Shown here: positions 8,034 to 39,624 of the stretch, in pieces
How positions within the stretch are numbered: the stretch's first letter is position 1
Layout of the letters: the number at the start of each line of letters is the position of its first letter
Origin: Clostridia bacterium
GTDB lineage: Bacteria; Bacillota; Clostridia; Christensenellales; UBA1242
Direction: 5' to 3'
DNA length: 39,624 nt
Assembly: GCA_045538225.1 (NCBI GenBank)
Contig: JAZSQY010000005.1
Coordinates: forward strand, 1 to 39,624
Made by a program: the position numbers and the translations under genes
Notes under the pieces: model-generated
Told to the model about the DNA's origin: nothing
The model's input: the letters and a program-made list of their open reading frames with translations, nothing else
Database searches by the model: none

Positions 8034-9146
8034 TTACTTACCTTGTTCTTGTTCGTTTTTGGTTGCTCTTAGTTTCATAAATAATTGGATAAATTGTGAT
8101 TTCTTTTTTTGTGTTTCTACATTATTTGTAGACGCGACTTTTCCGGCAGTTTGTTGCATAGGGACAACATTTTTTGTTTCGGTACTTTGCTCTGTTTCTT
8201 TAAGGGCATCTGCTCTTTCTTTTTCAATTAAATTTTTTTGAACCTTGACAAGAATTTTATTTACGTCATAACCACTTGTCGCTAATTTCCCCAAAAAATC
8301 ATTGAAAGACTTTTGCATCAATAATTCCATCGCCAAGCATTTGCGTAAATCATTGTCACCAAAAAATTTACTTTGCATAAGATGAGAAATTAAATGTATT
8401 TGCCACTCTTTATCCACCTTTCCATTCTCGTTAAAATACAAAACTTCGGGGTTTAATAAAGTTGTCACCTTTCCTTCAGGATCTTTGCGGTCAAAATTGA
8501 TAAATTTAATCATTGAATTTTCACCTGCATCTAACAAGGCAGAAAAATCTTTAACTAAATCTCCATTGTTTAAATGTTGGTTGTAATGATTATTTTGATT
8601 AATCATTTCTTCACTTTCGGCGTCTTTTTCTTTCCCTGAATGCGCCCTATATGTGGTGCTTAAAAATTGATAAACATCATGCATTGCTGCTATTTGCAAC
8701 AAATATTCCGATTCTTTCTTAGTTGCCGGCTTGCCACTTTTTTCATTAATTTCTTTAATTCGGTCTTCAGTAATTTCAAACTTTTTCAAACGATTACCTA
8801 TCATTTGTTTATAATTCAACTGCAAGTATTTAGTGTTTTGATTCATGCACCCAACTAAATTAACTAAATCGTCAACAATCTTATCTTCACTAACTTTTGT
8901 TATATCGGTCCCGTAATCAACAGATAAACCTTTCAAATAATCATTTTCAAGTTTAGCGTCTACTACTTGTTCAAACACCTTTTCATAATGTTTACGTAAA
9001 TTTGCATTTTCAGGAATGTTAGGAATTTGATTTAACGCAGCACTTAAATAAGCAGTTAAAAAACCACCGCTTACCACAAAAATTATTACGGATTCGTAAC
9101 TGTTAAAGACATTATTCTCCATATAATCGCTCATGAATGGTATCAT
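8034..9146 (-). CDS. Hypothetical membrane-anchored protein (one N-terminal TM, charged low-complexity C-terminus)
   Basis: 370-aa ORF with a hydrophobic segment ESVIIFVVSGGFLTAYLSAAL. No recognisable catalytic motif. Confidence 0.55.
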   Translation of the reverse strand: MIPFMSDYMENNVFNSYESVIIFVVSGGFLTAYLSAALNQIPNIPENANLRKHYEKVFEQVVDAKLENDYLKGLSVDYGTDITKVSEDKIVDDLVNLVGCMNQNTKYLQLNYKQMIGNRLKKFEITEDRIKEINEKSGKPATKKESEYLLQIAAMHDVYQFLSTTYRAHSGKEKDAESEEMINQNNHYNQHLNNGDLVKDFSALLDAGENSMIKFINFDRKDPEGKVTTLLNPEVLYFNENGKVDKEWQIHLISHLMQSKFFGDNDLRKCLAMELLMQKSFNDFLGKLATSGYDVNKILVKVQKNLIEKERADALKETEQSTETKNVVPMQQTAGKVASTNNVETQKKKSQFIQLFMKLRATKNEQEQGK

Positions 9147-10889: not shown

Positions 10890-12854
10890 TTAACAATTAA
10901 CTTGGTATTTTTTTATCAACGTTTCAAATCTTTGATTAAATTCATTAGAATCGAAAATTTCTTTGTCGTACTCCTCTTCTGAATGTTGGACAAACTTTTT
11001 TTTATTTACTGCCACTGTTTTAATAATGTCATCGGTATTTAAATTAAGATTTCCATTTCGCGATAACAAAAGATACCCATCTTCAAACTTTTTTAAGTTC
11101 AAGACAATGTTCTGATTTTTCAAAGCATAAACAACACTTTGGGTCATTGGAACTTCTTTCGGTGTTGAATCAAAATCACATTGCATATAATCCTTAATTT
11201 CCTGATAACATTTAGCTAAGGCTTCTTGTTCACTTACTCCGACCCCCACAGCGTGTCGCCAATCCCCAAACTCATCTTGAAACAATATATTGCTTTTTGC
11301 GGTATAGATTAATTTTCTCGTATTTTTACTATAAGATAACTGAATAAATAGTTCTTGATTGCCGACATTAATACTTAAAAACTTGTAAGCATATTCATAA
11401 TTAAATTGTTTTTTTAAAAATGCATGTTTAATATCTTGCAAGAAATTTGCTACCAGCCTGTCCCTTACAACCAAAATCGCTAACAAATAAATTACAAACC
11501 CCACTGCTATAATCAGCAAAGTGTTGAAAAAACTTGGGGCCAGATAAGAACTTAACGGTCCAATCACTAAACACATCGCAACACTAGCGACTAACGGTTT
11601 TAATGATGACCCAAAAATCCGCTTCAGTGATAACTTTTTCGCCACCATACATAACATTACCAATAATATTACAAACTCAGAAATAATCATTGTTACCACA
11701 GCACCAACAGACCCAAACCAATAGATTAAAGGAATATTTATAATAAAACTAAGAAACACACCAATTAAAATTGCCCAAACATATTGTTTATCATTTTTAT
11801 TTGGCAGTAAATATTGCTCACCCAGTACAGTACTTAATGCAATTAATAAAATTAAAACAGACATTAATTGCAGTAACAAAATACTTTTATGAAAATTCTC
11901 ACCCAAAAACCATGGAATAAAATTCCCTGCCACAAAAAACAAACCACAAACAACAGGCATTCCCAAAAGCCATATAAAGTGCATGGCCTTATAATTATTT
12001 TCCTTAACACGATTAATATTTCCTCGGATGACTTCGCTTGAATTATGAGGCAACATCACGATGCTGACACAATTTATAAAGACTATAATATCCTTAACAA
12101 TTTTTTCGGCTTGCGCATAGAAACCATTTTCAGCATCGGATTGTACAATAATTCCAAGAAAAAAATTATCACACAAATTGTAAACACTTAAAGCTAAGGT
12201 TGGAATAAATAAAATTAACGCTTTTTTTAAATGTCGATATGGTTTAAGATCTTTCAATTTAACTTTTACTAAATTTTTCTTAAGAAAGAAAAATAAACAT
12301 AAATTTGTACATATTGCAACCAAAGAATTTAATAAAACCAAAACCCATGTATCGTTCGGGTCCTTAACAAAAATGAAAATTCCTAAAACACTAAAAATTT
12401 TAACTAAGAGATTTATGAAAATAACTTTACCAAACTCTTCATTCCCGTAAAAAAAGAAAGAAATATCAATAGCAACAGACAAAATATCTAAAACAAAAAT
12501 TAAAATCAAATTTGAATAACTTCCATAAACTCCACTAAACAACAAAATAAAATTAACAGCTAATACTAACACAACACCAGTCAATCTACATAAAATAATC
12601 TCATAAAAGACCTTACTTTTTTCTACAAGATTATCTCTATGTTTAGCAATTTCTCGCCTCGCAAAGATATTAAAACCCAACGATGCAAAAATAACCCAGT
12701 ATGAATTAGTCGTATAGGCAAAACTATACTTACCTACACCATTTTCACCTAAAATTTTTGCAATATACGGAACAGAAATAATACTTACCGTTACCAAAAT
12801 AATTTGATATAGCATATAGAAAATCGTATTATTTTGCACCTTTGACTTAGACAT
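10890..12854 (-). CDS. Wzx-type polysaccharide flippase (MOP superfamily) with a soluble C-terminal extension of about 180 aa
   Basis: About 12-14 hydrophobic segments over the first 480 aa or so, typical of oligosaccharide flippases. The ATG at 12854 (MSKSKVQ) has GGTGGAAG upstream; the track's longer start is 12872. It overlaps the stop of the upstream gene. Confidence 0.75.
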   Translation of the reverse strand: MSKSKVQNNTIFYMLYQIILVTVSIISVPYIAKILGENGVGKYSFAYTTNSYWVIFASLGFNIFARREIAKHRDNLVEKSKVFYEIILCRLTGVVLVLAVNFILLFSGVYGSYSNLILIFVLDILSVAIDISFFFYGNEEFGKVIFINLLVKIFSVLGIFIFVKDPNDTWVLVLLNSLVAICTNLCLFFFLKKNLVKVKLKDLKPYRHLKKALILFIPTLALSVYNLCDNFFLGIIVQSDAENGFYAQAEKIVKDIIVFINCVSIVMLPHNSSEVIRGNINRVKENNYKAMHFIWLLGMPVVCGLFFVAGNFIPWFLGENFHKSILLLQLMSVLILLIALSTVLGEQYLLPNKNDKQYVWAILIGVFLSFIINIPLIYWFGSVGAVVTMIISEFVILLVMLCMVAKKLSLKRIFGSSLKPLVASVAMCLVIGPLSSYLAPSFFNTLLIIAVGFVIYLLAILVVRDRLVANFLQDIKHAFLKKQFNYEYAYKFLSINVGNQELFIQLSYSKNTRKLIYTAKSNILFQDEFGDWRHAVGVGVSEQEALAKCYQEIKDYMQCDFDSTPKEVPMTQSVVYALKNQNIVLNLKKFEDGYLLLSRNGNLNLNTDDIIKTVAVNKKKFVQHSEEEYDKEIFDSNEFNQRFETLIKKYQVNC

Positions 12855-15354
12855 CTTGTACTTCCACCACATTATTATTTTTTATAAATGTCTTAATGGC
12901 ATTGGCAATTCTATATATAACCTTCCAAGTAAAATTGAAAAACGGGAAACAAAATAAAAATACTTTTAGTTTCAAAAATTTTAATAATCTACATTCAAAC
13001 TTCATATACAATGAAGAATATTTACTTTTAATTATATAATTACATAAATCATTATCAATTAAATCTTTCGAAAGTAAAAATATCTCCTTTCTCTTTTTTT
13101 TATTCATTAATCCCCAGCCTAAAACCAAGTTGAAAGATACTAACCGCATACTGTATTTAGAATACTGAAACTCACTCGAATATTGACTTTCTAATGTGTT
13201 TTTTTCTGATTCTGTTAAATGGTCGAGTAATTTTATGTGATCTGTTACTTTGTTTAAAAAATCAGGTGATTTAGTCGCGGATGTAGCGTGCCTTACATAA
13301 TGATATAAATCTTCATTAACAAAAACTGTTTTTTCGGCTTTCAAAGCCACTTTTAATTGATATAACCGATCCTCACCAATCTTCATACCTTCTTCAAATT
13401 TGATACTTTTTGCAAGCTCCGCTTTGTAAATTGAATTCCAAATTGTATTATTTATTTTATTTTTTAAATTTAATTTGATTGTTTCGGATTGATCTATATT
13501 ATTTAAATTCAATAATCGTCCTGTTCTAGAAACTTTTTTCCCTTTTAAATTGATATCATCATATTGACACATACCAACATCAGCATTTTCATTCAACATT
13601 TTAGTTAAAATTTTCTGATGCATTTGCAACTCAAAATCATCGTCAATATCTATAAAGGAAATATAATCACCGCTTGCATACTCTAAACCTAAATTTCTGG
13701 CATGCGAAACTCCTTTATTTTCTTCTAAATTAATTAACACAATTTTATCACTATACTCTTGCAAAAGCTCCAATGATTTATCGGTTGATCCATCATTGAC
13801 AACAATAACTTCCTTTTTCAATGGAATTTGCAATACTTTCTCAAGGCATGTCTTAATAAATCTTTCACCATTAAAGACTGGTACAATAACTGATAATTTA
13901 ACGTTAGAAAGCAAGGCTTCATCAATTATATTTTTTTGCAACTCTCTATTGTTTTTTTCATTAGCCCTACGCGATAAGTTATCAAGAAAACCAATAGCAG
14001 CCAACACCAGCACCAGTCCAGCAAAATCAAAATATAAAATTTCAACCAGCAAGAACATAAATAAAGGAAGTATCAAAATCACTGAAGATAAGTAATTTTT
14101 AAAATTTTTAAACTTTTTCCAATTAATCGCGCCTAAAAACATTAAAAGATAAAAGACAAAGCCAATTAATCCATTTTCCCACAGTTTTTGCACCAAAATG
14201 TTATGGGAGTTCAAATTACCTATTTCTCTTCTGGAAATTCCACGACCCAAAAGAATTGACATTGGTGACGATGACCAATCCATCAAGTAGTATTTAATCA
14301 TATCTGTTCTACTAAGTGCTGCTGGAAGATTACCCGCTAATAATTCCTTTAAGATGCTTTCGTCATTTATACCCGGGACAAGCCCCGGAATATAAGACTC
14401 GTAATATGCCATATCGAACCGCACAAAAAATGTATGCGTCACATCATTAAATACCAAAGCCACAACTCCGATGATTAAACCCAATATAAATAAAAGCGTT
14501 AACGACGAAATTATATGTTTTCGCTTTAGTAATTCAAAAATCATATATAAAAACATCAATACAGCAATTGTGATAACAAAAGTTCTCGAAATGGTTAAAT
14601 ATCCAAAAATAAATACAGGAATAAACAATATTAAAAATTCTAATAAAGAAATGTTGTTTTTATGTTTCATAAGCACCAAAGCTGAAACGGCAACTAAAGC
14701 CAATCCAGCAAGTTGCATCGGATGAGTTGTTAAACCTTGATAACGGATCATACCTGTTTCTGATAGTGTTATCTGAATATATGAAGCAATAAAAGGTGAT
14801 ATTTTATAATACAAACCAAAGACGCATGAAATTATAATTCCTGAAATGAAAACACGAACCAAGTAGCCAAACTTAATTTCTTTCCTTTCTTCAAAAACTA
14901 CATACAAAGCCAAAAATGAAGCTACCTCATGAACTAAATCCAGCCATTCACATACATGAAATGGTAAAGCGAGATAAACCAAAAACAAAATTAATGGGAT
15001 AAATATTTTTAGATTGATTTTTCTTTCTTTTCTTATCACGCGCAATAAATATAATAAGAAAACAGATATTTTTAATGCATCTAGTATAAAAAACAAAAAA
15101 CTAGAAAAAAAAAGTACTCCGGCTATATGCACAGATACTGTACAGATTTGAAATGTTGTAAAAAAACAATAAACAAATAAAATCAAACCAAGAATCTTGG
15201 TTTCATTACGCAAAAAGAAAGCAAACAGAAAAATAAAGATTGACGCAAGAAACGCAAATGGAGCCGAAAAACACGCACCAAAAATTAAAATTGATAATAT
15301 TACGTAACCGGCAACGTCCGGATTATTTTTAATTATCGTCCACAGTTTCTTCAT
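12847..15354 (-). CDS. Fusion protein: O-antigen ligase/polymerase-like (Wzy_C-type) polytopic membrane domain plus family 2 glycosyltransferase
   Basis: The N-terminal 470 aa or so are polytopic membrane. They are followed by the GT2 signature LSVIVPVFNGERFI...VVNDGSTDKS...NKGVSHARNLG...YISFIDIDD. Confidence 0.8.
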   Translation of the reverse strand: MKKLWTIIKNNPDVAGYVILSILIFGACFSAPFAFLASIFIFLFAFFLRNETKILGLILFVYCFFTTFQICTVSVHIAGVLFFSSFLFFILDALKISVFLLYLLRVIRKERKINLKIFIPLILFLVYLALPFHVCEWLDLVHEVASFLALYVVFEERKEIKFGYLVRVFISGIIISCVFGLYYKISPFIASYIQITLSETGMIRYQGLTTHPMQLAGLALVAVSALVLMKHKNNISLLEFLILFIPVFIFGYLTISRTFVITIAVLMFLYMIFELLKRKHIISSLTLLFILGLIIGVVALVFNDVTHTFFVRFDMAYYESYIPGLVPGINDESILKELLAGNLPAALSRTDMIKYYLMDWSSSPMSILLGRGISRREIGNLNSHNILVQKLWENGLIGFVFYLLMFLGAINWKKFKNFKNYLSSVILILPLFMFLLVEILYFDFAGLVLVLAAIGFLDNLSRRANEKNNRELQKNIIDEALLSNVKLSVIVPVFNGERFIKTCLEKVLQIPLKKEVIVVNDGSTDKSLELLQEYSDKIVLINLEENKGVSHARNLGLEYASGDYISFIDIDDDFELQMHQKILTKMLNENADVGMCQYDDINLKGKKVSRTGRLLNLNNIDQSETIKLNLKNKINNTIWNSIYKAELAKSIKFEEGMKIGEDRLYQLKVALKAEKTVFVNEDLYHYVRHATSATKSPDFLNKVTDHIKLLDHLTESEKNTLESQYSSEFQYSKYSMRLVSFNLVLGWGLMNKKKRKEIFLLSKDLIDNDLCNYIIKSKYSSLYMKFECRLLKFLKLKVFLFCFPFFNFTWKVIYRIANAIKTFIKNNNVVEVQDV

Positions 15355-17618: not shown

Positions 17619-18245
17619 ATGAATTGGTTTCCTAATTTTACATGTATGGCTTGCGGTACAGAGATTCAATCTACCAGCAATATTTATCTTTGCCCAAAAT
17701 GTATGGACAACTTGCCAATCATGTCAGAAACACAAACCACACACTTTTCGCCATTTAGCTACGCAGAACCAATTCGCAGCATGATTTTAAGTCTGAAATA
17801 CAATGATAATGGTTTTATCGCCAAAGCACTGGCACCATACTTAGCCGCCGTTTACCTTAAACAAATTGAAAAGTTTTTTGATAAACCGCCAATTATTATA
17901 CCTATACCACTACATCGATCGCGACAAAATGAACGCGGTTATAATCAAAGCGAAGTACTTGCTCGCGAGTTAGCATCATATCTAAATTTAACAATAAATC
18001 CAAACATTCTCATTCGTAAACGCAAAACAGTTATTCAAAAACAAATGGATGCTAAAACACGCGAGATGAACTTGCGTGGAGCTTTTGATATTTCGACAGA
18101 TGGAACAAACCACATCAAAAATCAAAATGTTTTGTTGTTAGATGATGTCTACACAACTGGTGCAACCACTAACGAATGCAAATCAGTTTTACTAGCTAAC
18201 GGAGCTAATAAAATCGTTATCTTAACAATCGCTAGTGTTATTTAA
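17619..18245 (+). CDS. comFC: ComF family protein (phosphoribosyltransferase domain)
   Basis: N-terminal CxxC...CxxC zinc-finger-like pairs and the PRPP-binding motif VLLLDDVYTTGATTNE. Confidence 0.8.
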   Translation: MNWFPNFTCMACGTEIQSTSNIYLCPKCMDNLPIMSETQTTHFSPFSYAEPIRSMILSLKYNDNGFIAKALAPYLAAVYLKQIEKFFDKPPIIIPIPLHRSRQNERGYNQSEVLARELASYLNLTINPNILIRKRKTVIQKQMDAKTREMNLRGAFDISTDGTNHIKNQNVLLLDDVYTTGATTNECKSVLLANGANKIVILTIASVI

Positions 18246-31685: not shown

Positions 31686-32456
31686 TCAGTTAGATATCAA
31701 GTTTTCAATCATTTCTAGTCCGGTGTAAGTATCGGCTAAAAATTCTTGTATTGGTTCTGATTCATCTTTGTTTTTGACTTCTGCACTTAAAACAATGTCA
31801 GGTAAATTTTTTAAACCCAAAGCAATTTTTCCCCAATCAATGGTCCCTTTACCACAAATTAAGTGTTCATCGTTAACACCATGATTATCATGCAAATGTA
31901 ATACTTCTACGTAGTTTGAATATTTTGTTAACATTGGTAACTTAGGTGTCAAAAAATGTTGATGTCCTGTATCAAAACAAATCCTTAATTTGTCGTGTTT
32001 TATGTGTCGAAAAATGTAAGGAATTTCTTTATCCAAATAAAGATTTTCAACACATAAATTAATATTACATTGCTCACAAACTTGTAAAATTTTCTTTAAA
32101 CGTAATAAACCATACTTACTCTGTTTTTCTTTTTTACTACCATTTAAGTGAATAACAAAATTCTTGGTCAAGCCACGACAACTTTCAATTTGGCGGCAAT
32201 AATCATCGCAAACCATATCACCATTTTCACCACGTTCCCAAAAGTAATGTAAGCGTTCTCCATCATACAAACAATGAATCATTGTGCATTTAAGCCCCAA
32301 ATTAGCCGCATATTGAACGATATCACTTAAGTTACTATCTTTACCCCCATCGCAAACGCCGCAATAAAACTCGTCGAACCCAGCTTCCTTAATCGCGCTT
32401 ATCCGCTCTTTGTACGAAATATTATAACCAAAATACAGATTTACTGACTTCTTCAT
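31686..32456 (-). CDS. Sugar phosphate isomerase/epimerase family protein (xylose-isomerase-like TIM barrel)
   Basis: Length and pattern typical of the AP-endonuclease-2/TIM barrel family (CFDTGHQH, LHLHDN). Has its own promoter. Confidence 0.6.
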   Translation of the reverse strand: MKKSVNLYFGYNISYKERISAIKEAGFDEFYCGVCDGGKDSNLSDIVQYAANLGLKCTMIHCLYDGERLHYFWERGENGDMVCDDYCRQIESCRGLTKNFVIHLNGSKKEKQSKYGLLRLKKILQVCEQCNINLCVENLYLDKEIPYIFRHIKHDKLRICFDTGHQHFLTPKLPMLTKYSNYVEVLHLHDNHGVNDEHLICGKGTIDWGKIALGLKNLPDIVLSAEVKNKDESEPIQEFLADTYTGLEMIENLISN

Positions 32457-32523: not shown

Positions 32524-34101
32524 CTAATCATTTCCCAAAAAATGTCTACCGCACTCTTCCAAACTTGGAACTTCAAATTTTTCTAGTTTAAGGCCATAAC
32601 GCATAAATCTATTACCACATTTCCTTAGTTTACGCGCACTGAAACTGTGCAATTTGTTATTGCACGTGAAGAAATCGTTACCACATTCTTGTAAATTTCC
32701 CGCATTGAAACTTGTAATTTCTTCATTACTGCACATAAAGAAATCCCCACATTTTTCTAATTTTTCGAAATTAATATACTTTATGGTTTTGTTCGTAAAC
32801 AAGAAAGCATCTTTGCATTTCCTTAAACGAGGTAAAACTACGCTTGTTAACTGTTCATTACAGTTTAAGAAAAACGAACCAACCTCTTCCAAATTCGGCA
32901 AGTTGATATCTTCCAAAACTCTATTCTGATACAAAAACTCATCACCGCATCTTACCACATTTTCCATCGTTAATTTTTTTAAACTTGTATTGTTGCTCAT
33001 AAATTTACTTTTACAATTCTTAATACTGTCATCCGCATACTCTATAATTTGATTATTCTTATTAACTTTTATGGTTGCATTTCCACCATCTTGTTTTTTA
33101 ATATGAACAACCCCTTTTTCACCGAAATTAATTTTTTCAAATTTACTTAATTCATTTGGAAAAGGATCTTCATTTTTAATATCGTAAGCTTTAACAGTTT
33201 TCTCCTTACAATCGACAATATAACTATCCGCCAAAATTTGATGTTCCGGTAATTTAATAACATTATAATTATCGATAATGATATTATTTGGGCAATAATA
33301 AATATTGTTAATCTCCATGTTATAACGATAATATTTACCATCATTTGCACGTACGTAATTTTCTAATTCAAGATCATTAAATTCTCTTTTTAATTTTTCT
33401 TTTACACCAAAATCCCTTTCAAAAGCATTAGATAAACCAGAAATGATGTTATCTAAATTACTGTTAAATAGATTATCTGGATTATTGACACTATGATTAT
33501 ACCTACTTTTAATTGATACTGTTGAAAATTTATCTTTAGTAAATTGAATGCTAATCACACTTTTATTATATTTATCGTTCCTATCTGGCTCTGGGAAATC
33601 ATCTCTGTTCAATACTTCCGCATCTTTATGTACTGCAAACCAAACACGACACGTATCTAAACGATCGCCTCGAAAAGTACAAAGTTCTTCTCCATTATTG
33701 GATTCAGGTTGATACCCTTCTTGATAAACAGGAGTTGGACGTCCATCAGCTCTTTTGTAATAATGACGAAAAGATTGAATATCTGCTTCCGTTTGACATT
33801 CAGGGTACAGTGTATACCCAGCTTTCGCCATTAATTCGACAGCAGACTTGTCATTGTCGTTTAAATCGGTCGTCTCTTCTCTGAAGATATTATCTACTTT
33901 TTGATAGATAAAAGCTTTGAATTCACTTTCTTTTCCTTGGTTAATAATATCTGAAGCAAGCACACGACTTTTACAGAAATTTTCTTCCAAGAGTTGCGGC
34001 AATAAACCTTCCGTTTCTAAGATACGTTGGAAATCTGCCCGACATAACCTCATCATTTGTTCGCCAAATTTTTGCTTAATAATTTTTAAATCCTTTTCCA
34101 T
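32524..34101 (-). CDS. Paralogue 1 (525 aa): conserved uncharacterised N-terminal module plus about 8 Cys-Gly LRR-type repeats
   Basis: Collinear with the three upstream paralogues (EELCTF, RVWFAV.KD, SIQFTK, RYNH, NLDNIISGLS.AFERD.GV, YYCPNN). No signal peptide or TM. SD AAAGGAAAA. Confidence 0.85.
   Translation of the reverse strand: MEKDLKIIKQKFGEQMMRLCRADFQRILETEGLLPQLLEENFCKSRVLASDIINQGKESEFKAFIYQKVDNIFREETTDLNDNDKSAVELMAKAGYTLYPECQTEADIQSFRHYYKRADGRPTPVYQEGYQPESNNGEELCTFRGDRLDTCRVWFAVHKDAEVLNRDDFPEPDRNDKYNKSVISIQFTKDKFSTVSIKSRYNHSVNNPDNLFNSNLDNIISGLSNAFERDFGVKEKLKREFNDLELENYVRANDGKYYRYNMEINNIYYCPNNIIIDNYNVIKLPEHQILADSYIVDCKEKTVKAYDIKNEDPFPNELSKFEKINFGEKGVVHIKKQDGGNATIKVNKNNQIIEYADDSIKNCKSKFMSNNTSLKKLTMENVVRCGDEFLYQNRVLEDINLPNLEEVGSFFLNCNEQLTSVVLPRLRKCKDAFLFTNKTIKYINFEKLEKCGDFFMCSNEEITSFNAGNLQECGNDFFTCNNKLHSFSARKLRKCGNRFMRYGLKLEKFEVPSLEECGRHFLGND
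32527..33036 (-). repeat. Coding array of about 8 x 22-aa (66-nt) LRR-type repeats in paralogue 1
   Basis: aa 356-525 parse as x(L/F)PxLxxCGxxF(L/M)xxNxxLxxh units. Confidence 0.75.
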
Positions 34102-34137
34102 TTTTATTATTTTCCTTTATTTTGCTTTTAAGATTTT

Positions 34138-36435
34138 TTACCATGCATACCCATATTCCCCTGGATCAATTCCAGGCATTAATCGATGATCACCATGCAT
34201 CAGGTGTTTATTTTTCTCCAAAGAATTTCGCCCCAAATTTTCCAAAAGTGGTGCATAGAATTTTTCCAACGTTGTGTTATACCGCATAAAACTATGTCCA
34301 CAATTATTCAACCAAGGCAACATTAAATATTTCATTGAATCATTGCATAAAAGAAATTGGTTTCCGCACTGATGTAACCATTGTAAATTCACTTCAGATA
34401 GTATTCGATTCCAAGGCATAAAATCTCTTCCACAAACCGACAGCTGCGGTAAATCTAATATTCGCATACGCCGATTATTGTACAAAAAGTTATCCGCACA
34501 TCGGCTTAGTCGTGGGAAATACACCTCACTTAGAATTTCATTTTTGTACATAAAATCATCCCAACATATTTGTAAATTTGGCATTTCAATTTTTTTCATT
34601 GTCATGTTTTGACGCATAAATCCATCACCACATTCTTTCAATGATGGGAAACATGCTTGCGTTATCGTATTATTAGCACTTAAAAAATCATTACTACATT
34701 CCACCAACTCTGGAACATCTACACATTCAATCTGCTCATTGTTTCGAATAAACGAATGACCGCACTCTTTCAAACTTGGAAAAGAAACATATTTCAAAGC
34801 CTTATTATTAAGTAAGAATTCATCTTTACACTCTTCCAGCATTTTCAAATTAATCATTTCCAAACCTTGATTTGCTGACAAAAAACCCGCACCACATTTG
34901 CGCAACTTTTCCAAAGTTAAAAAACGCAGACTTTCATTTGCTGCCATAAATGAATAACCGCACTCTTCTAGAGCCGGTAAATAAACTTCATTGACTCTTT
35001 TATTTTGAGCAAAAAATTGCTTTTTGCATTCACGAAGCTTAGGAAAAGAAATCTGTTCTACACCTAAATTACAAAACATAAACCCATCACCAACACTTAA
35101 TAACTCGTCTGCATTAATGTGCTTTAAACCTATGTTGGAAAGCATGAAATAATCCCCACATTTTTTCAATTTTGGCAAATCCATGCTTTCCAAAGATTTA
35201 TTTTGGTACAAAAACGAATGATCACATTCTTCCAAGCTCGCTAAATTTATTTTTAACAGATCATTATTTTCGTACATAAAATCAAAACCACAACTCACAA
35301 CATTGGGTAAATTTAAACTCTTTAAAGCCTTATTATAACGCATATAGTTATTACCGCATGTTTTTAAACTTTTATCCTCAAAAGCAATGATTTGCCGACG
35401 CTTATCTAATTTTAAAGTCGCTTGTTCGCCATTTGATTTTATCACTATAATTGACCCGTCTTTATTAGGAATAATGCTCATATTCTCTGCTAAATCGTGA
35501 ACAAAACTATCATGAATATATTTATCATAAAGGCTGATTGTACTTTCTTTAAAGTCAATTACATAATAGTCTGCCAAGATTTGATGTAATGGCAATTGTT
35601 TCGGTTTAAAATTTTCAATCACTACATTATTTGGGCAATAATAAATATTATTAATCTCATGATTATACGGATAATATCGCCCATCATTTGCCAATGTATA
35701 ACCCTCTAATTCGAAATTAGATTTACCACAATGACTTCGGTCTCGCACACCGTAATCTCTTTCAAAAGCATCAGACAACCCACTAATGATATTATCCAAA
35801 TTGCTATTAAAAGTATTATCTGGATTAATCACCGTATGATTGTAACGATTTTTAATCGACAAGGTCGGATACTTTCCTTTGGTAAATTGAATACTAATCA
35901 CACTGGTGCCATATGCATCTTGCCTCATCGGATTTTTAAAATCTTCCCTGTGAATTTTATGTACATCTTTTTTAACCGCGAACCAAACCCGGTCTAAGTT
36001 CAAACGCCCTCCGTTAAATGTACATAGCTCTTCACCTACGCGTAACTCTGGTTGTCCACCATGATAGACTGGCGTTTCAGAGTATGGGCGATAATAATAA
36101 TGCCGAAAAGATTGAATGTCTTCTTCTGTTTTACATTCTGGATATAAAATGTATCCGGCTTGATCTAATAATTCCTTTGCGGACTTATTAATGCTAATTT
36201 TGATTTCATCGCGTTGAATAACTACCTTGGAAAAAATAAATTCTTTAAAATCATCCTCTTTACATTGATTAATAATGTCTTCCGCCAGATTTTTATTTTT
36301 TATAAAATTTTTTTGTAAAATCTCAGGTAAAAGACCTTCAACTTCCAAAATCCGTGCAAAGTTTCTACGGCAAAGATGCATCATTAATTCGCCGTATTTA
36401 TTTTTAATCCACAATAAATCTTTATTATTGTACAT
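34138..36435 (-). CDS. Paralogue 2 (765 aa): conserved N-terminal module plus about 18 Cys-Gly LRR-type repeats
   Basis: Same N-terminal module. aa 351-745 parse into 22-residue units such as NLPNVVSCGFDFMYENNDLLKI and DLPKLKKCGDYFMLSNIGLKHI. Confidence 0.85.
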   Translation of the reverse strand: MYNNKDLLWIKNKYGELMMHLCRRNFARILEVEGLLPEILQKNFIKNKNLAEDIINQCKEDDFKEFIFSKVVIQRDEIKISINKSAKELLDQAGYILYPECKTEEDIQSFRHYYYRPYSETPVYHGGQPELRVGEELCTFNGGRLNLDRVWFAVKKDVHKIHREDFKNPMRQDAYGTSVISIQFTKGKYPTLSIKNRYNHTVINPDNTFNSNLDNIISGLSDAFERDYGVRDRSHCGKSNFELEGYTLANDGRYYPYNHEINNIYYCPNNVVIENFKPKQLPLHQILADYYVIDFKESTISLYDKYIHDSFVHDLAENMSIIPNKDGSIIVIKSNGEQATLKLDKRRQIIAFEDKSLKTCGNNYMRYNKALKSLNLPNVVSCGFDFMYENNDLLKINLASLEECDHSFLYQNKSLESMDLPKLKKCGDYFMLSNIGLKHINADELLSVGDGFMFCNLGVEQISFPKLRECKKQFFAQNKRVNEVYLPALEECGYSFMAANESLRFLTLEKLRKCGAGFLSANQGLEMINLKMLEECKDEFLLNNKALKYVSFPSLKECGHSFIRNNEQIECVDVPELVECSNDFLSANNTITQACFPSLKECGDGFMRQNMTMKKIEMPNLQICWDDFMYKNEILSEVYFPRLSRCADNFLYNNRRMRILDLPQLSVCGRDFMPWNRILSEVNLQWLHQCGNQFLLCNDSMKYLMLPWLNNCGHSFMRYNTTLEKFYAPLLENLGRNSLEKNKHLMHGDHRLMPGIDPGEYGYAW
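34201..35385 (-). repeat. Coding array of about 18 x 22-aa LRR-type repeats in paralogue 2
   Basis: aa 351-745 (395 aa) parse into 18 consecutive 22-residue units with Cys-Gly at a fixed register. Confidence 0.8.
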
Positions 36436-36462
36436 ATTAAATAATGTTAAACCTTTGCTTTT

Positions 36463-36491
36463 ATTTTACACCTTTGTTGTATTGATTTCAA
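36463..36491 (-). promoter_or_regulatory. Putative promoter, TTGAAA-17-TAAAAT, for LRR paralogue 2 (and probably 1)
   Basis: -35 at 36491-36486 and -10 at 36468-36463, then a 27-nt leader containing AAAGG before the ATG at 36435. Confidence 0.55.
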
Positions 36492-36517
36492 GGGTCTACT
36501 AAAAAATTAACCAGCAA

Positions 36518-38275
36518 CTACCTCGTTCCGATAGTCGACACATCACAGCAACTAACTTTATTTTTTAATTTAAAAGCACGTTCTAAACATACTTGAAAAT
36601 GCCTTAACAATTTTGAGGGCTTTTGGCGTAAAGGTTCTTTACTTAAAGTATTATGATATAAAAAATTTTCACCACATTGTAGTAATTTAGGTAAAGATAA
36701 TTCTGTTAAGGATTTATTCCATGCCATAAATCCATTCCCACACATTTGTAATCTCGGCAAGGTTAAAACTTCAATTTTCTCGTTGTGATGTAAAAAATCA
36801 TCACCGCAAATTTTTAAATTTGGGGCTTCAAATTTATTTAAAAAATTATATGAACCCAAAAAGTTATTACCACATTCACGTAACCTTGGAAAATTAACTT
36901 CGGTCAAATTTGGCGAAAAATATAAAAAATCATGACCACATTTTTGTAATTGCGGCATCTTAACAAATTTTAAATTGTTCGAGTAAAAAAAGCTGTCACC
37001 ACATACCAGCAAACTCGGGAGATTTATCTGCGTTAATACTTCATTACTATACATAAAAAAATCATAGCACCGACGCAGTTTTGGCATCTGAAGAATTTCG
37101 ATTGAATTGTTATAATACAAAAAACCAGATAAACATTCTTGCACTTCAGGTAAGTTTATTTCTTTTATGTATTGACTTTTTGCTAAGTATTGCTCCCCAC
37201 ATTGACGCAAGCTATCATCTTTAATTTTCTCAATCTGATTACGGCTATTGAAGGTAATCGTGACAACTCCGCCATCTTTTTTAGTAATTTTAATAACCCC
37301 ATTTTTTTCAATTTTAATAGATTGATTTTCTCCAAGAACGTCGATAAAACTATCATAATGACTATTGTCATACATTCTCACTTCTTTAGTTTTTAAATCA
37401 ATAATAAAGTAATCAAGCAAAAACTGATGCGTTGGTAAAGGTTTAACTTTATTACTATCAATAATGATATTGTTTGGACAGTAATAAACGTTATTAATAT
37501 TATAATTATATGGATAAAATTTACCATCACTTGCCATTACATATCCATCTAATTCAAAGTTGCATCTTTCAGTTTGCATTTTATCAGAAACTCCATAATC
37601 ACGTTCAAAAGCTACAGATAATCCAGGAGAAATATTATCAAGATTATTATTAAAAGTATTATCTGGATTGTAAACAGAATCATTATAGCGATTTTTAATA
37701 GAAAGCGTTGAATATTCGTTCTTTGTAAATTGAATACATAAAACACTTGTCCCGTATTTATCTTGTCTTTGTGGATTTGTAAAATCTTCACGTTTTAGTT
37801 TTTCAGCATCTTTATGAATCGCGAACCAAATTCGATTGCCCAATAGTCTCCCACCGTTAAACGTGCAAAGTTCTTCTCCGACATGATGCTCTGGAACTTC
37901 ACCTTCGTTGTATCTAAGTTTTTTCCCATCTGGTCTATAAAAATAATGGCGAAAGGATTGAATATCTTTTTCTGTTAAACATTCCGGGTAAAGATGATAA
38001 CCTTTTTCCGCTAAGATTTCTGCTGCTTTTTTATTTCTGTCTACATTACACTTTGTTTCTGTTAAATTAGCTTTGTTATATAAAAAATCTTTAAAAGATT
38101 GAATGTGACTTTGTAGGATAATATCCTCTGCCAAAAATTTTTGCTTAGCAAAATACTGATCTAACAACTTTGGTAACAATCCAGGAACTTCTAATAATTT
38201 ATAGAGTTCATCACGACAAAGTTTCATCATGCGCTCACCAAATCTATATTTAATTACATCTAAATCGTTTTTCAT
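36518..38275 (-). CDS. Paralogue 3 (585 aa): conserved N-terminal module plus about 9 Cys-Gly LRR-type repeats and a basic C-terminal tail
   Basis: Same module and repeats. Own TTGAAA-17-TATAAT promoter. Confidence 0.85.
   Translation of the reverse strand: MKNDLDVIKYRFGERMMKLCRDELYKLLEVPGLLPKLLDQYFAKQKFLAEDIILQSHIQSFKDFLYNKANLTETKCNVDRNKKAAEILAEKGYHLYPECLTEKDIQSFRHYFYRPDGKKLRYNEGEVPEHHVGEELCTFNGGRLLGNRIWFAIHKDAEKLKREDFTNPQRQDKYGTSVLCIQFTKNEYSTLSIKNRYNDSVYNPDNTFNNNLDNISPGLSVAFERDYGVSDKMQTERCNFELDGYVMASDGKFYPYNYNINNVYYCPNNIIIDSNKVKPLPTHQFLLDYFIIDLKTKEVRMYDNSHYDSFIDVLGENQSIKIEKNGVIKITKKDGGVVTITFNSRNQIEKIKDDSLRQCGEQYLAKSQYIKEINLPEVQECLSGFLYYNNSIEILQMPKLRRCYDFFMYSNEVLTQINLPSLLVCGDSFFYSNNLKFVKMPQLQKCGHDFLYFSPNLTEVNFPRLRECGNNFLGSYNFLNKFEAPNLKICGDDFLHHNEKIEVLTLPRLQMCGNGFMAWNKSLTELSLPKLLQCGENFLYHNTLSKEPLRQKPSKLLRHFQVCLERAFKLKNKVSCCDVSTIGTR
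36635..37225 (-). repeat. Coding array of about 9 x 22-aa LRR-type repeats in paralogue 3
   Basis: aa 351-547 parse into 22-residue units (one unit of 21). Confidence 0.75.
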
Positions 38276-38294
38276 AACTGCTAACCTTTATTAA

Positions 38295-38323
38295 ATTATA
38301 ACTTTACAAAAAATCAATTTCAA
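38295..38323 (-). promoter_or_regulatory. Putative promoter, TTGAAA-17-TATAAT, for LRR paralogue 3
   Basis: -35 at 38323-38318 and -10 at 38300-38295, then a 19-nt leader containing AAAGG before the ATG at 38275. Confidence 0.6.
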
Positions 38324-38341
38324 GAGCCATTCATAATATTA

Positions 38342-39624
38342 TTAAAAAATTTTATTTAGGTGATTTTTCAAACTCGACACTGCATGTTTAAAATCATTTT
38401 TCAAAACTGTAAGTTTAATCTTAAACGGAGAACAACCCTCATTCCTCCATTCTTTCATTACAACTTTTGAAACGTTAAGTTTTGTAATATTGGGATTCCA
38501 TCTCATAAAATATCTATCCAGTTTTTGTAACTTAGGTACATTAAATTCTTCCAATGAGTTTTGTTCAAACATAAAACGTTTTCCACATTCTTCCAAAGAA
38601 GGTAAATCTATTTTTTTTAACTGTGCGCTAAAATAAAAAAACATTTGACCACACTTTTTTAACTTAGGAGCTTGAAAGGTTTTTAATGATTTGTTCATAC
38701 TTAAAAAACGATCTGAACAAGATTCAAGTGAAGGTAAATTTAAATCCTCTATGGTTTCATTATTAAACAAAAAATAATCCCCACATTTTTTCAAATTTGG
38801 TAAATAAATACTTTTGATAGCCTTATTTTTAAACAAAAAAGAACTTCCAATTTTTTTCAAGTTCGGAAAGCTTGCCTCATTAAGTAACAAATTGTTATGC
38901 AAAAAACCCCATCCGCATTCTTGTAACAAAGAAACATCTATCTTATTAATCAAACTGGCACTCTTTAGAAAGTCATTTCCACATATTTGCAAATATGGAA
39001 AATTCGCTTCCATTAAGCAATTATTATTCTCTAAAAAGTTATCACCACAAATCTTTAAATTTGTTAAATTTAAATCAACCAAGACATTGTTTTTACACAT
39101 AAAGTTATGCCCGCACTCTTGCAAACTTTCATCTTCAAGACCGACAATTTCTCTTTTCTGATTTAATTTTAAAATTGCCACATTACCGTCTTGCTTGGTT
39201 ATTTTCAAGATACCGCCTTTTTCCGCAAGTATCTTTTGGTTAACTCCATACTCAAGCACAAAAGCATCACGTATCTTTTCATCATACAATTTAATCGTAT
39301 GTTGGTTACAATCAACAATATAATAATCAATCAGCATTTGATGGTTCGGTATTTTTATTACCTCTAACTCTTGGTTAATAATGATATTATTCGGGCAATA
39401 ATATATCTCTTTTATTTCATAATTGTATGGGTAATATTTTCCATCATTTGCTTGCACGTATCCGTCAATCTCAAGTGTCGGCCCACACTTTGCCATCTTA
39501 TCACGGACACCAAAATCTCTTTCGAAAGCATCGGTCAGTCCTTCAATAATATTATCTAAATTACTGTTAAATGTATTATCCCCACCAACGGCACGATGAT
39601 TATAACGACTCTTAATTAATAAGA
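38342..39624 (-). CDS. Paralogue 4 (partial; 5' end beyond the window): about 10 Cys-Gly LRR-type repeats
   Basis: The frame stays open upstream of the track's Met (39496) to the window edge. It reads ..LLIKSRYNHRAVGGDNTFNSNLDNIIEGLTDAFERDFGVRDKMAKCG.., which aligns with the middle of the N-terminal module of paralogues 1-3. Confidence 0.85.
   Translation of the reverse strand, partial: LLIKSRYNHRAVGGDNTFNSNLDNIIEGLTDAFERDFGVRDKMAKCGPTLEIDGYVQANDGKYYPYNYEIKEIYYCPNNIIINQELEVIKIPNHQMLIDYYIVDCNQHTIKLYDEKIRDAFVLEYGVNQKILAEKGGILKITKQDGNVAILKLNQKREIVGLEDESLQECGHNFMCKNNVLVDLNLTNLKICGDNFLENNNCLMEANFPYLQICGNDFLKSASLINKIDVSLLQECGWGFLHNNLLLNEASFPNLKKIGSSFLFKNKAIKSIYLPNLKKCGDYFLFNNETIEDLNLPSLESCSDRFLSMNKSLKTFQAPKLKKCGQMFFYFSAQLKKIDLPSLEECGKRFMFEQNSLEEFNVPKLQKLDRYFMRWNPNITKLNVSKVVMKEWRNEGCSPFKIKLTVLKNDFKHAVSSLKNHLNKIF
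38477..39142 (-). repeat. Coding array of about 10 x 22-aa LRR-type repeats in paralogue 4
   Basis: aa 119-340 of the track ORF parse into 22-residue units. Confidence 0.75.

Follow-up and report, generated by a model that had tools for sequence, protein, structure and literature searches.

Leucine-rich repeat (LRR) proteins of the BspA/TpLRR class, such as BspA of Tannerella forsythia, LrrA of Treponema denticola, HupY/LrrG of Streptococcus agalactiae and the proteins of Ca. Mycoplasma girerdii and Trichomonas, carry repeats of 22–23 residues with the pattern L.LP....IG..F...N..L. Like the family described here, they occur in host-associated organisms as multi-copy paralogue families (PMC5476646); that of Ca. 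Mycoplasma girerdii has at least 28 copies and has been described as a family of surface proteins (PMC5476646). We analysed a tandem array of four genes with the same class of repeat in a 39,624-nt stretch of DNA from a Clostridia bacterium (Bacillota; Christensenellales; UBA1242), contig JAZSQY010000005.1 of GenBank assembly GCA_045538225.1, positions 1 to 39,624, referred to below as the window. Whereas the BspA/TpLRR proteins are surface or secreted proteins with leaders and anchors, the window family has neither, and its array is without phase-variation repeats. None of the BspA/TpLRR proteins has the 345-aa N-terminal module (N-module) found here, where the LRR is C-terminal and follows a conserved domain that is probably catalytic.

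Bacterial LRR proteins with an intracellular location are, to our knowledge, rare and little understood. The NEL E3 ubiquitin ligases (IpaH, SspH, SlrP) are type III secreted proteins of Gram-negative bacteria in which an N-terminal LRR selects the substrate for an attached conserved, all-α NEL domain that carries a key cysteine. The window family shares this design only: its N-module has one universally conserved cysteine (C138), but the domain order is reversed and there is no Pfam NEL match and no Foldseek match in the Protein Data Bank (PDB). NLR/STAND receptors (plant and animal NLRs, bacterial Avs and bNACHT) are intracellular and join a constant module to a variable LRR, with tandem arrays and hypervariable exposed positions. 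The window family resembles them in its constant module and variable LRR, its tandem arrays, its hypervariable repeat positions and its probable intracellular location, but it lacks their NTPase switch, with no Walker A motif in 124 family members (the four window proteins and 120 relatives) and no NACHT or NB-ARC match in Pfam or PADLOC, and its genes lie outside defence islands. Phages encode giant multidomain proteins in their structural/packaging module, the injected ‘polyvalent’ or internal virion proteins. Six IMG/VR proteins of this size class contain the full cassette of the window family, one of them (L096) adjoining terminase; the window genes, in contrast, are free-standing and chromosomal and encode proteins of 525–765 aa. 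An earlier note, made from the window sequence alone, could tie the array to no described system, and we found no description of the family in the literature. The repeat domain and the combination of a constant module with a variable LRR are already known in kind, and the N-module, its partner gene and the phage connection appear to be undescribed so far.

We tentatively favour, at somewhat less than an even chance, a reading in which these are cytoplasmic ‘recognise and act’ proteins: the repeats pick out the target on which a constant and probably catalytic module acts, with phage–host conflict as the probable setting. The C-terminal BspA-type LRR solenoid would bind a macromolecular target, most likely a protein, with specificity set by exposed positions 11, 12, 15, 16 and 18 of each repeat and by repeat number. 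The N-module would be the constant output, composed of a helical head, a loop-rich α/β core and a β-hairpin stalk. Its core most likely forms a catalytic or ligand-/metal-binding pocket that acts on, or reports, the bound target, with E135, C138, T139, R144, R171, D173, Y175, T177, S178, Q183, K195, N196, R197, Y198, N199, H200 and D206 as candidate pocket residues. A translationally coupled partner of ~95 aa with an invariant C-terminal R-x-Y-G, present in most relatives, would act as regulator, inhibitor or adaptor. Since the module also occurs in phages, in some as a whole cassette within giant proteins encoded beside terminase, phage–bacterium or other intracellular conflict is the likeliest arena. 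The window genome would hold a repertoire of at least four, probably six, fixed specificities, and single-copy lineages would vary their one LRR instead. The data show the anatomy, the conservation pattern, the distribution, the partner gene, the phage relatives, the lack of export signals and the hypervariability; from them we infer the catalysis, the protein nature of the target, the role of the partner and the conflict setting.

The array is made up of four head-to-tail paralogues on the minus strand, of 525, 765 and 585 aa and a 426-codon fragment by open reading frame (ORF) calls, and the four consecutive genes reported in the earlier note are found at the coordinates given there. The spacers between them are 36, 82 and 66 bp long. 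The reading frame of the fragment is open to the window end with no start codon in the window, and its 5′ part lies beyond the contig end; since the window is the entire 39,624-bp NCBI contig, the array is cut by an assembly break. The other three products align collinearly with the 765-aa protein at 52, 47 and 41% identity. The motifs from which a shared N-terminal module had first been recognised (YPEC.TE.DIQSFRHY, EELCTF, SIQFTK, SIKNRYN, NLDNI..GL and YYCPNN) are present. The array features are as follows, with domain boundaries in paralogue 2 taken from AlphaFold models.

32524..34101, minus strand: paralogue 1, 525 aa; N-module aa 1–345 at nt 33067–34101, eight LRR units at nt 32527–33039
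34138..36435, minus strand: paralogue 2, 765 aa; 17 LRR units, aa 352–725, at nt 34261–35382, then a 40-aa non-repeat tail
36220–36435, minus strand: predicted helical head of paralogue 2, aa 1–72
35716–36192, minus strand: predicted α/β core of paralogue 2, aa ~82–240
35386–35715, minus strand: predicted β-hairpin stalk of paralogue 2, aa 241–350, leading into the LRR
36518..38275, minus strand: paralogue 3, 585 aa; N-module, nine LRR units at nt 36635–37225 and a C-terminal non-LRR tail of ~40 aa
38342..39624, minus strand: paralogue 4, a 3′ fragment of 426 codons plus stop; end of the core, β-hairpin stalk and ten LRR units at nt 38480–39139

The repeat period is strictly 22 residues, with 8, 17, 9 and 10 units in the 525-, 765- and 585-aa proteins and the fragment, respectively. 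The window repeats follow the pattern φ-x-L-P-x-L-x-x-C-G-x-x-F-L-x-x-N-x-x-L-x-x and have these per-position counts: L6 (38/42), C9 (38/42), G10 (31/42), F13 (42/46) and N17 (36/46). The consensus across the family is LPN...IG..FL..N.SL, so the cysteine of the ‘Cys-Gly’ pair is lineage-specific; the 22-residue leucine-rich character given in the earlier note stands, and the ‘Cys-Gly’ signature does not extend to the family, which has Ile-Gly. Against a gathering cut-off of 27.7 bits (whole-protein score), PF13306 (LRR_5) scores 33.7 bits in the 585-aa protein, 35.9 in the fragment and 23.4 in the 765-aa protein, and does not match the 525-aa protein. E-values range from 1e-5 to 1e-9 in the window proteins and reach 7e-39 in phage relatives, and many family relatives carry PF13306 in precomputed annotation. 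All four window proteins show the regular repeats of ~22–25 residues, L.(I/L)P....(I)G..(A)F...(C/N)..L, that define membership of LRR_5. By these patterns and profiles, the repeats are of the known BspA/TpLRR class (PF13306) and not of a new type.

The N-module, the ~345 aa that precede the LRR in each protein, has no match in Pfam, NCBIfam, PADLOC or PHROGs. Searching Pfam with 20 divergent members at E-values up to 5 gave no family matched by more than one of them, and phmmer together with a combined bacterial and phage profile against PDB sequences gave a best E-value of 0.26. An AlphaFold2 model of the whole module, built from a 65-sequence alignment, has a mean predicted local distance difference test (pLDDT) value of 87.5 and a predicted template modelling (pTM) score of 0.53, and resolves into three pieces: helical head, α/β core and β-hairpin stalk. 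Modelled separately, the core reaches a pLDDT of 94.1 and a pTM of 0.89 and consists of a sheet of four strands, short helices and loops that are long but well ordered. Foldseek searches with the 350-aa model against the PDB and BFVD returned only β-propeller noise (E ≥ 0.08), and the core-only model found nothing in the PDB better than E = 2.8 with a template modelling score of at most 0.23. The profile, modelling and structure searches proposed for aa 1–350 of the 765-aa protein have thus yielded no confident match to a characterised domain, in keeping with the original view that the module is unassignable. Provisionally, the predicted core lacks a known fold, as judged against the PDB (core and whole module) and BFVD (whole module).

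Seventeen residues of the N-module are invariant in bacteria and phages (K11, G94, E135, T139, D173, Y175, S178, Q183, S193, I194, R197, Y198, L213, G219, L220, Y265 and D294), at a bacteria–phage identity of 23–29%. Others, among ~19 in all, are nearly invariant, including C138, R144, R171, K195, N196, N199, H200 and D206. The conserved residues are mostly polar and lie in loops. C138 is the only universally conserved cysteine; that of the YPEC motif (C101) is not conserved in phages. In the modelled loop-rich domain, the set formed by C138, H200, D173/D206 and E135 would suit a nucleophile-based enzyme or a metal site. The window proteins contain no Walker A, HExxH or GxGxxG motif, as expected from the first reading, which had named neither a P-loop nor any other catalytic signature. 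We considered a papain or NlpC/P60-like fold, with C138 at a helix N-terminus and H200 62 residues further on, and rejected it because there is no structural match and the YPEC cysteine is lost in phages. PD-(D/E)xK, ADP-ribosyltransferase, GIY-YIG and HNH were set aside as well, their motif order or spacing being unfit and Foldseek silent.

Sequence features of the proteins point to the cytoplasm. Kyte–Doolittle and motif scans found no hydrophobic leader, transmembrane segment, lipobox or LPxTG motif in any of the 124 proteins, which extends to the relatives the lack of targeting signals first remarked on in the window. The maximum 19-residue Kyte–Doolittle mean of the window proteins is 1.06, with a threshold for hydrophobic segments of 1.6 and a neighbouring secreted-type control at 2.77. 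In the same genomes, neighbouring genes do have ordinary Sec signals that can be recognised, and the gaps of 36, 82 and 66 bp are too short to hide an overlooked leader. The N-terminus is hydrophilic and conserved up to its first residues. Cysteine makes up 3.3% of residues in the paralogues versus 1.84% in 13 other window proteins, with a family median of 1.7%; low cysteine content is typical of exported proteins in Gram-positive bacteria. From these features we infer a cytoplasmic location.

The same features bear on whether the proteins could be BspA-like surface or secreted adhesins, mediating attachment to host, mucus or other bacteria, with a non-standard route of export, the N-module as an anchor or presentation domain and the array as an adhesin repertoire. 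Such a role would fit the PF13306 repeats, the weak NCBIfam matches to the streptococcal adhesin HupY/LrrG and the origin of nearly all named sources in gut or rumen metagenomes. Large BspA-like families are described as surface proteins in the wall-less relative Ca. Mycoplasma girerdii (PMC5476646). The aromatic-rich β-hairpin stalk (DGKYY.YN.EINNIYY) also recalls, in our own reading and with no Pfam match, cell-wall-binding repeats. Against this role, signal peptides, transmembrane segments, lipoboxes and sortase motifs are missing from 124 members while Sec signals can be read in neighbouring genes, the N-terminus is hydrophilic and conserved to its first residues, and cysteine is at or above the cytoplasmic level. 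The array has no phase-variation repeats: there are no dinucleotide or longer repeat tracts, and the sole homopolymer of eight or more is a T8 at 38611. Secretion genes are absent from the recurrent families among 118 immediate neighbours, and the module is found in phage proteins that have no LRR. We therefore regard adhesins as distinctly unlikely, and the host or surface interaction raised in the earlier note is disfavoured by the missing export signals and the cysteine-rich proteins. If the proteins were adhesins after all, an unrecognised export route would be implied.

The family is large and almost unnamed. With aa 1–350 as query, 2,762 clusters (90% identity) were recovered; the best 120 cover 85–100% of the module at 47–62% identity, and the sole name attached is ‘leucine-rich repeat protein [Clostridia bacterium]’. 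An exhaustive HMMER search of 1.84 billion representatives gave 1,296 matching clusters (50% identity) when E-values up to 1e-3 were accepted; at up to 1e-30 there were 816, which we take as the safe count because the profile included some repeat columns. Among the 150 best HMMER matches the module starts within the first 20 residues in 149, in proteins of 369–857 aa. At least 543 stretches encode a relative in GTDB contigs sampled at one genome per species. Named sources are nearly all uncultured gut or rumen metagenome-assembled genomes of Clostridia, Bacilli, ‘Tenericutes’, Christensenella, Catabacter, CAG:914 and Onthoplasma, the exceptions being one labelled Bacteroidaceae and one plain ‘bacterium’. 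Within 21 kb, the gene is present as a single copy in 52 of 74 loci, and elsewhere the tandem copies reach 5 to 11 or more. This supplies the map of spread and copy number that had been called for, and it qualifies the thought that the family might prove to be both widespread and annotated: widespread it is (at least 816 clusters at 50% identity), and its annotation goes no further than ‘leucine-rich repeat protein’ or ‘hypothetical protein’.

Among the 118 immediate neighbours at these 74 loci, only PcrA/UvrD helicase recurs, at ~10 loci of apparently one lineage, and the remainder are housekeeping genes. No secretion, mobile-element or defence genes occur among the recurrent neighbour families, and PADLOC on the 118 neighbours gave generic UvrD-helicase matches only. 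We observed that the LRR gene and its partner are inserted within conserved DNA-repair gene pairs, xseA/xseB in one lineage and pcrA/ligA in another; this position may reflect function or merely sites where insertion is tolerated.

L121:3289–6912, L040:7887–11846 and L052:6989–15040: insertions of the LRR gene and partner within DNA-repair gene pairs

Variation that bears on a recognition function was seen in a lineage with a single copy. We compared six syntenic single-copy orthologues located between pcrA and ligA, with two further orthologues, truncated by contig ends, included in the identity averages. Mean identity is 88% in the N-module and 64% in the LRR. The ratio of nonsynonymous to synonymous substitution rates (ω, dN/dS) is 0.03–0.09 for the adjacent pcrA, 0.11–0.23 for the N-module and 0.38–0.70 for the LRR, whose dN and dS may be partly inflated in this lineage by misaligned non-orthologous repeats. 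Repeat positions 11, 12, 15, 16 and 18 differ at 56–81% of aligned sites, and positions 13 and 14 at 0–2%. At the five variable positions dN is 0.4–1.0, i.e. 1.6–4 times the dS of the N-module of the same gene. Repeat number ranges from 5 to 16 among the single-copy orthologues. One of them (L068:9998–12190) counts 16 repeats, among them identical units of 22 and 44 residues, e.g. IELPNVTNIGEGFLYGNNSLTS three times, so that its LRR has evidently grown very recently by internal tandem duplication.

This pattern must be set against the proposal that the proteins serve a housekeeping task of their lineage, DNA repair or replication being examples, as adaptors or scaffolds without catalysis. The N-module would then function in binding or oligomerisation, the LRR would bring in a cellular partner and the phage copies would be captured host genes. 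Genes embedded in core operons (pcrA and ligA at 10 and 6 loci, xseA/xseB, and fmt/def/rlmN) would be expected of such a role, as would single copies in 52 of 74 loci, purifying selection with one-to-one orthology to a sister species, and the lack of any enzyme motif. A fixed partner, however, should not give hypervariable LRR positions and 5–16 repeats among close species, and expansion to 6–11 tandem copies would be unexpected in small genomes. The pcrA context looks like one lineage, and the DNA-repair flavour lacks statistical support. The ~20 invariant polar loop residues, kept down to 25% identity, suggest a pocket over a mere interface. On balance we consider an adaptor unlikely.

An ORF of ~95 aa on the same strand abuts the LRR gene, or overlaps it by a few nucleotides, in 48 of the 74 loci. 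Loci of the Clostridia type have it upstream of the LRR gene, those of the Bacilli or RF39 type downstream. No residue of the partner is invariant except the C-terminal R and G of ...L-K-R-x-Y-G. The partner has no Pfam match, and the 67 homologues found are all stand-alone proteins. A ubiquitin-like role, suggested by the C-terminal glycine, was not adopted, as there is no E1-like gene nearby and the sequence looks all-β; it remains a lead only. In some Bacilli-type arrays a second family of small ORFs, of 112–152 aa, adjoins the partner, and one member is fused to it in a 190-aa ORF. Examples of both families are listed here.

L001:723–1019, L002:9709–9993, L006:9699–9992 and L027:9585–9875: partner gene
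L043:11013–11351, L062:6442–6900 and L043:13288–13860: second small ORF family

The partner invites comparison with toxin–antitoxin or abortive-infection pairs, in which the ~95-aa protein would restrain a toxic N-module, plugging the pocket with its tail, until the LRR senses a phage protein and frees the toxin. The two genes are tightly coupled in either order, they are scattered over unrelated housekeeping contexts in variable copy number, phage homologues exist, and the invariant residues of the partner sit at its extreme C-terminus, all of which such a pair would explain. A partner profile match to the anti-CRISPR AcrIIA2 would point the same way but is weak and non-significant (E = 0.21). 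Against a pair of this kind, arrays have far fewer partners than LRR genes (one per six in L001, and none within 17–21 kb in L024 and L070) and 26 of the 74 loci lack the partner altogether. The LRR protein itself has no PADLOC match, and the only defence matches of its neighbours are the generic UvrD helicases. We consider a toxin–antitoxin pair very unlikely.

Phage relatives provide a link to conflict. The IMG/VR database holds 43 loci with distant relatives, at 25–49% identity and of two kinds; tblastn searches of GenBank phages and PLSDB plasmids gave no match to the family. Proteins of the first kind, of ~570 aa and mostly on contigs of 100–200 kb, have the head, core and hairpins followed by an unrelated C-terminal half of ~270 aa with a coiled-coil-like end. 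They belong to a family of 426 clusters labelled ‘hypothetical protein [Caudoviricetes sp.]’. Because phages join the module to other C-terminal domains, we regard the N-module as an autonomous unit. Proteins of the second kind, on six IMG/VR contigs, are 3,550–3,741 aa long and hold a complete cassette of head, core, hairpin and LRR with 12–24 repeats, at 25–31% identity to the window module. Five of the six have one or two HExxH motifs around the cassette. In L096, the one case checked, the giant gene is flanked by a virion structural protein on one side and the terminase large subunit on the other. PF13306 is the sole Pfam match of the giant proteins of L096 and L111 at E up to 0.01, with none of the domains of phage polyvalent proteins (Pfam LPD and MPTase-PolyVal sets), and that of L114 has no PHROG match.

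L075:9692–11428, L110:9665–11419 and L116:9797–11473: ~570-aa phage proteins on IMG/VR contigs
L096:5435–16171, L102:5204–15877, L111:4052–15277 and L114:5183–16060: giant phage proteins with the full cassette

The full cassette has moved between cellular and phage genomes. A bolder form of the ‘recognise and act’ reading, which we find doubtful, takes the N-module to be an enzyme fold not seen before, guided by the LRR and controlled by the partner through an R-x-Y-G tail placed in the pocket. The family would then be an NTPase-free intracellular recognition system, immune or protein-modifying, maintained as single hypervariable genes or as repertoires, and captured by phages, in some cases next to virion genes.

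The history of the window array can be read from a sister species, whose contig L001 is syntenic with the window at 82% nucleotide identity. Its array has six copies, of 612, 619, 719, 693, 765 and 525 aa, preceded by a 98-aa gene. The copies correspond as follows.

L001 9224–11521, 765 aa: counterpart of the window 765-aa protein, 76% identity
L001 11551–13128, 525 aa: counterpart of the window 525-aa protein, 79% identity
L001 719-aa copy: counterpart of the window 585-aa protein, 66% identity over aa 2–564, with more repeats in L001
L001 619-aa copy: counterpart of the window fragment, which is 69% identical to its aa 196–619
L001 693-aa copy: no counterpart in the window

A counterpart of the 612-aa copy would fall beyond the contig end of the window. 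The orthology indicates long-standing copies, each maintained in its own right, with a loss or gain now and then and with shifts in repeat number. The term ‘accessory island’ used in the earlier note is therefore inappropriate: given synteny at 82% nucleotide identity, and one-to-one orthologues of the same length for the 765- and 525-aa copies, the region is neither mobile nor specific to a strain. We also observed that the tail of the 585-aa paralogue (window 36518–36640; …SKEPLRQKPSKLLRHFQVCLERAFKLKNKVSCCDVSTIGTR) is not LRR-like, where the 719-aa sister-species protein continues with more repeats. Together with the missing 693-aa counterpart, this tail and the adjoining spacer (36436–36517) suggest a deletion that took repeats and one whole gene.

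Several observations weigh against ‘recognise and act’ proteins engaged in conflict. The window paralogues are under ordinary purifying selection relative to their sister orthologues (ω ~0.08–0.17, with dS saturated), and their LRRs are barely more divergent than the N-module and have no hypervariable positions, which argues against an ongoing arms race in the window lineage. The idea of a constant module joined to a variable repeat domain is supported by the single-copy orthologues (88 versus 64% identity, 5–16 repeats). Even in the single-copy lineage the misaligned repeats mentioned above may account for part of the LRR rates. The module has no nameable catalytic activity or ligand, and its invariant residues fit no assignable motif. 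The genes are outside defence islands and mobile elements, with housekeeping neighbours and no PADLOC match. The partner, besides missing from 26 of the 74 loci, is not visible in the window; synteny with L001 places it upstream of the first copy, beyond the contig end. The cytoplasmic location is predicted from sequence, and both the role of the giant phage proteins and their placement in the virion are putative.

The neighbours of the array are core genes, as first reported: def, fmt and rlmN agree with PDB sequence matches to peptide deformylase, Met-tRNA formyltransferase and RlmN (E 1e-29 to 1e-74). The remaining window encodes ordinary chromosomal functions, including murein synthesis, FakA, an EPSP-synthase-family protein and polysaccharide synthesis. 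The best two promoter matches of the array are included in the list below; the number of σ70-like sites in the region is not above that in shuffled sequence, and the matches are to consensus only. Because these two sites sit exactly in short spacers, the paralogues may be transcribed separately.

31686–32456: immediate neighbour, xylose-isomerase-like TIM barrel
38323–38295, minus strand: promoter-like site TTGAAA, 17 nt, TATAAT in spacer 38276..38341, before the 585-aa gene; 11 of 12 consensus matches, the best of the region
36491–36463, minus strand: promoter-like site TTGAAA, 17 nt, TAAAAT in spacer 36436..36517, before the 765-aa gene; 10 of 12 consensus matches

Elsewhere in the window, positions 10890–15354 have the lowest GC content (27–28% versus ~35%) and encode a polysaccharide-biosynthesis (flippase-type) protein and an 835-aa protein with a family-2 glycosyltransferase domain; this segment may be a surface-polysaccharide locus of different origin. 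Two ORFs, 8034–9146 on the minus strand (370 aa) and 17619–18245 on the plus strand (208 aa), have no Pfam match at E up to 1e-5.

The family described here, found almost wholly in gut Firmicutes that are abundant but uncultured, joins an LRR of the kind that appears to stay inside the cell to a 160-residue core that is very confidently modelled and yet unlike any structure found in the PDB. Should the module be an enzyme directed by the LRR, the few bacterial designs known to couple recognition to an effector would gain a new output domain, and phage–host biology could be approached in lineages without cultured representatives. The two evolutionary modes, a single hypervariable gene in some lineages and a conserved repertoire of paralogues in others, constitute a natural experiment on how recognition diversity is maintained.

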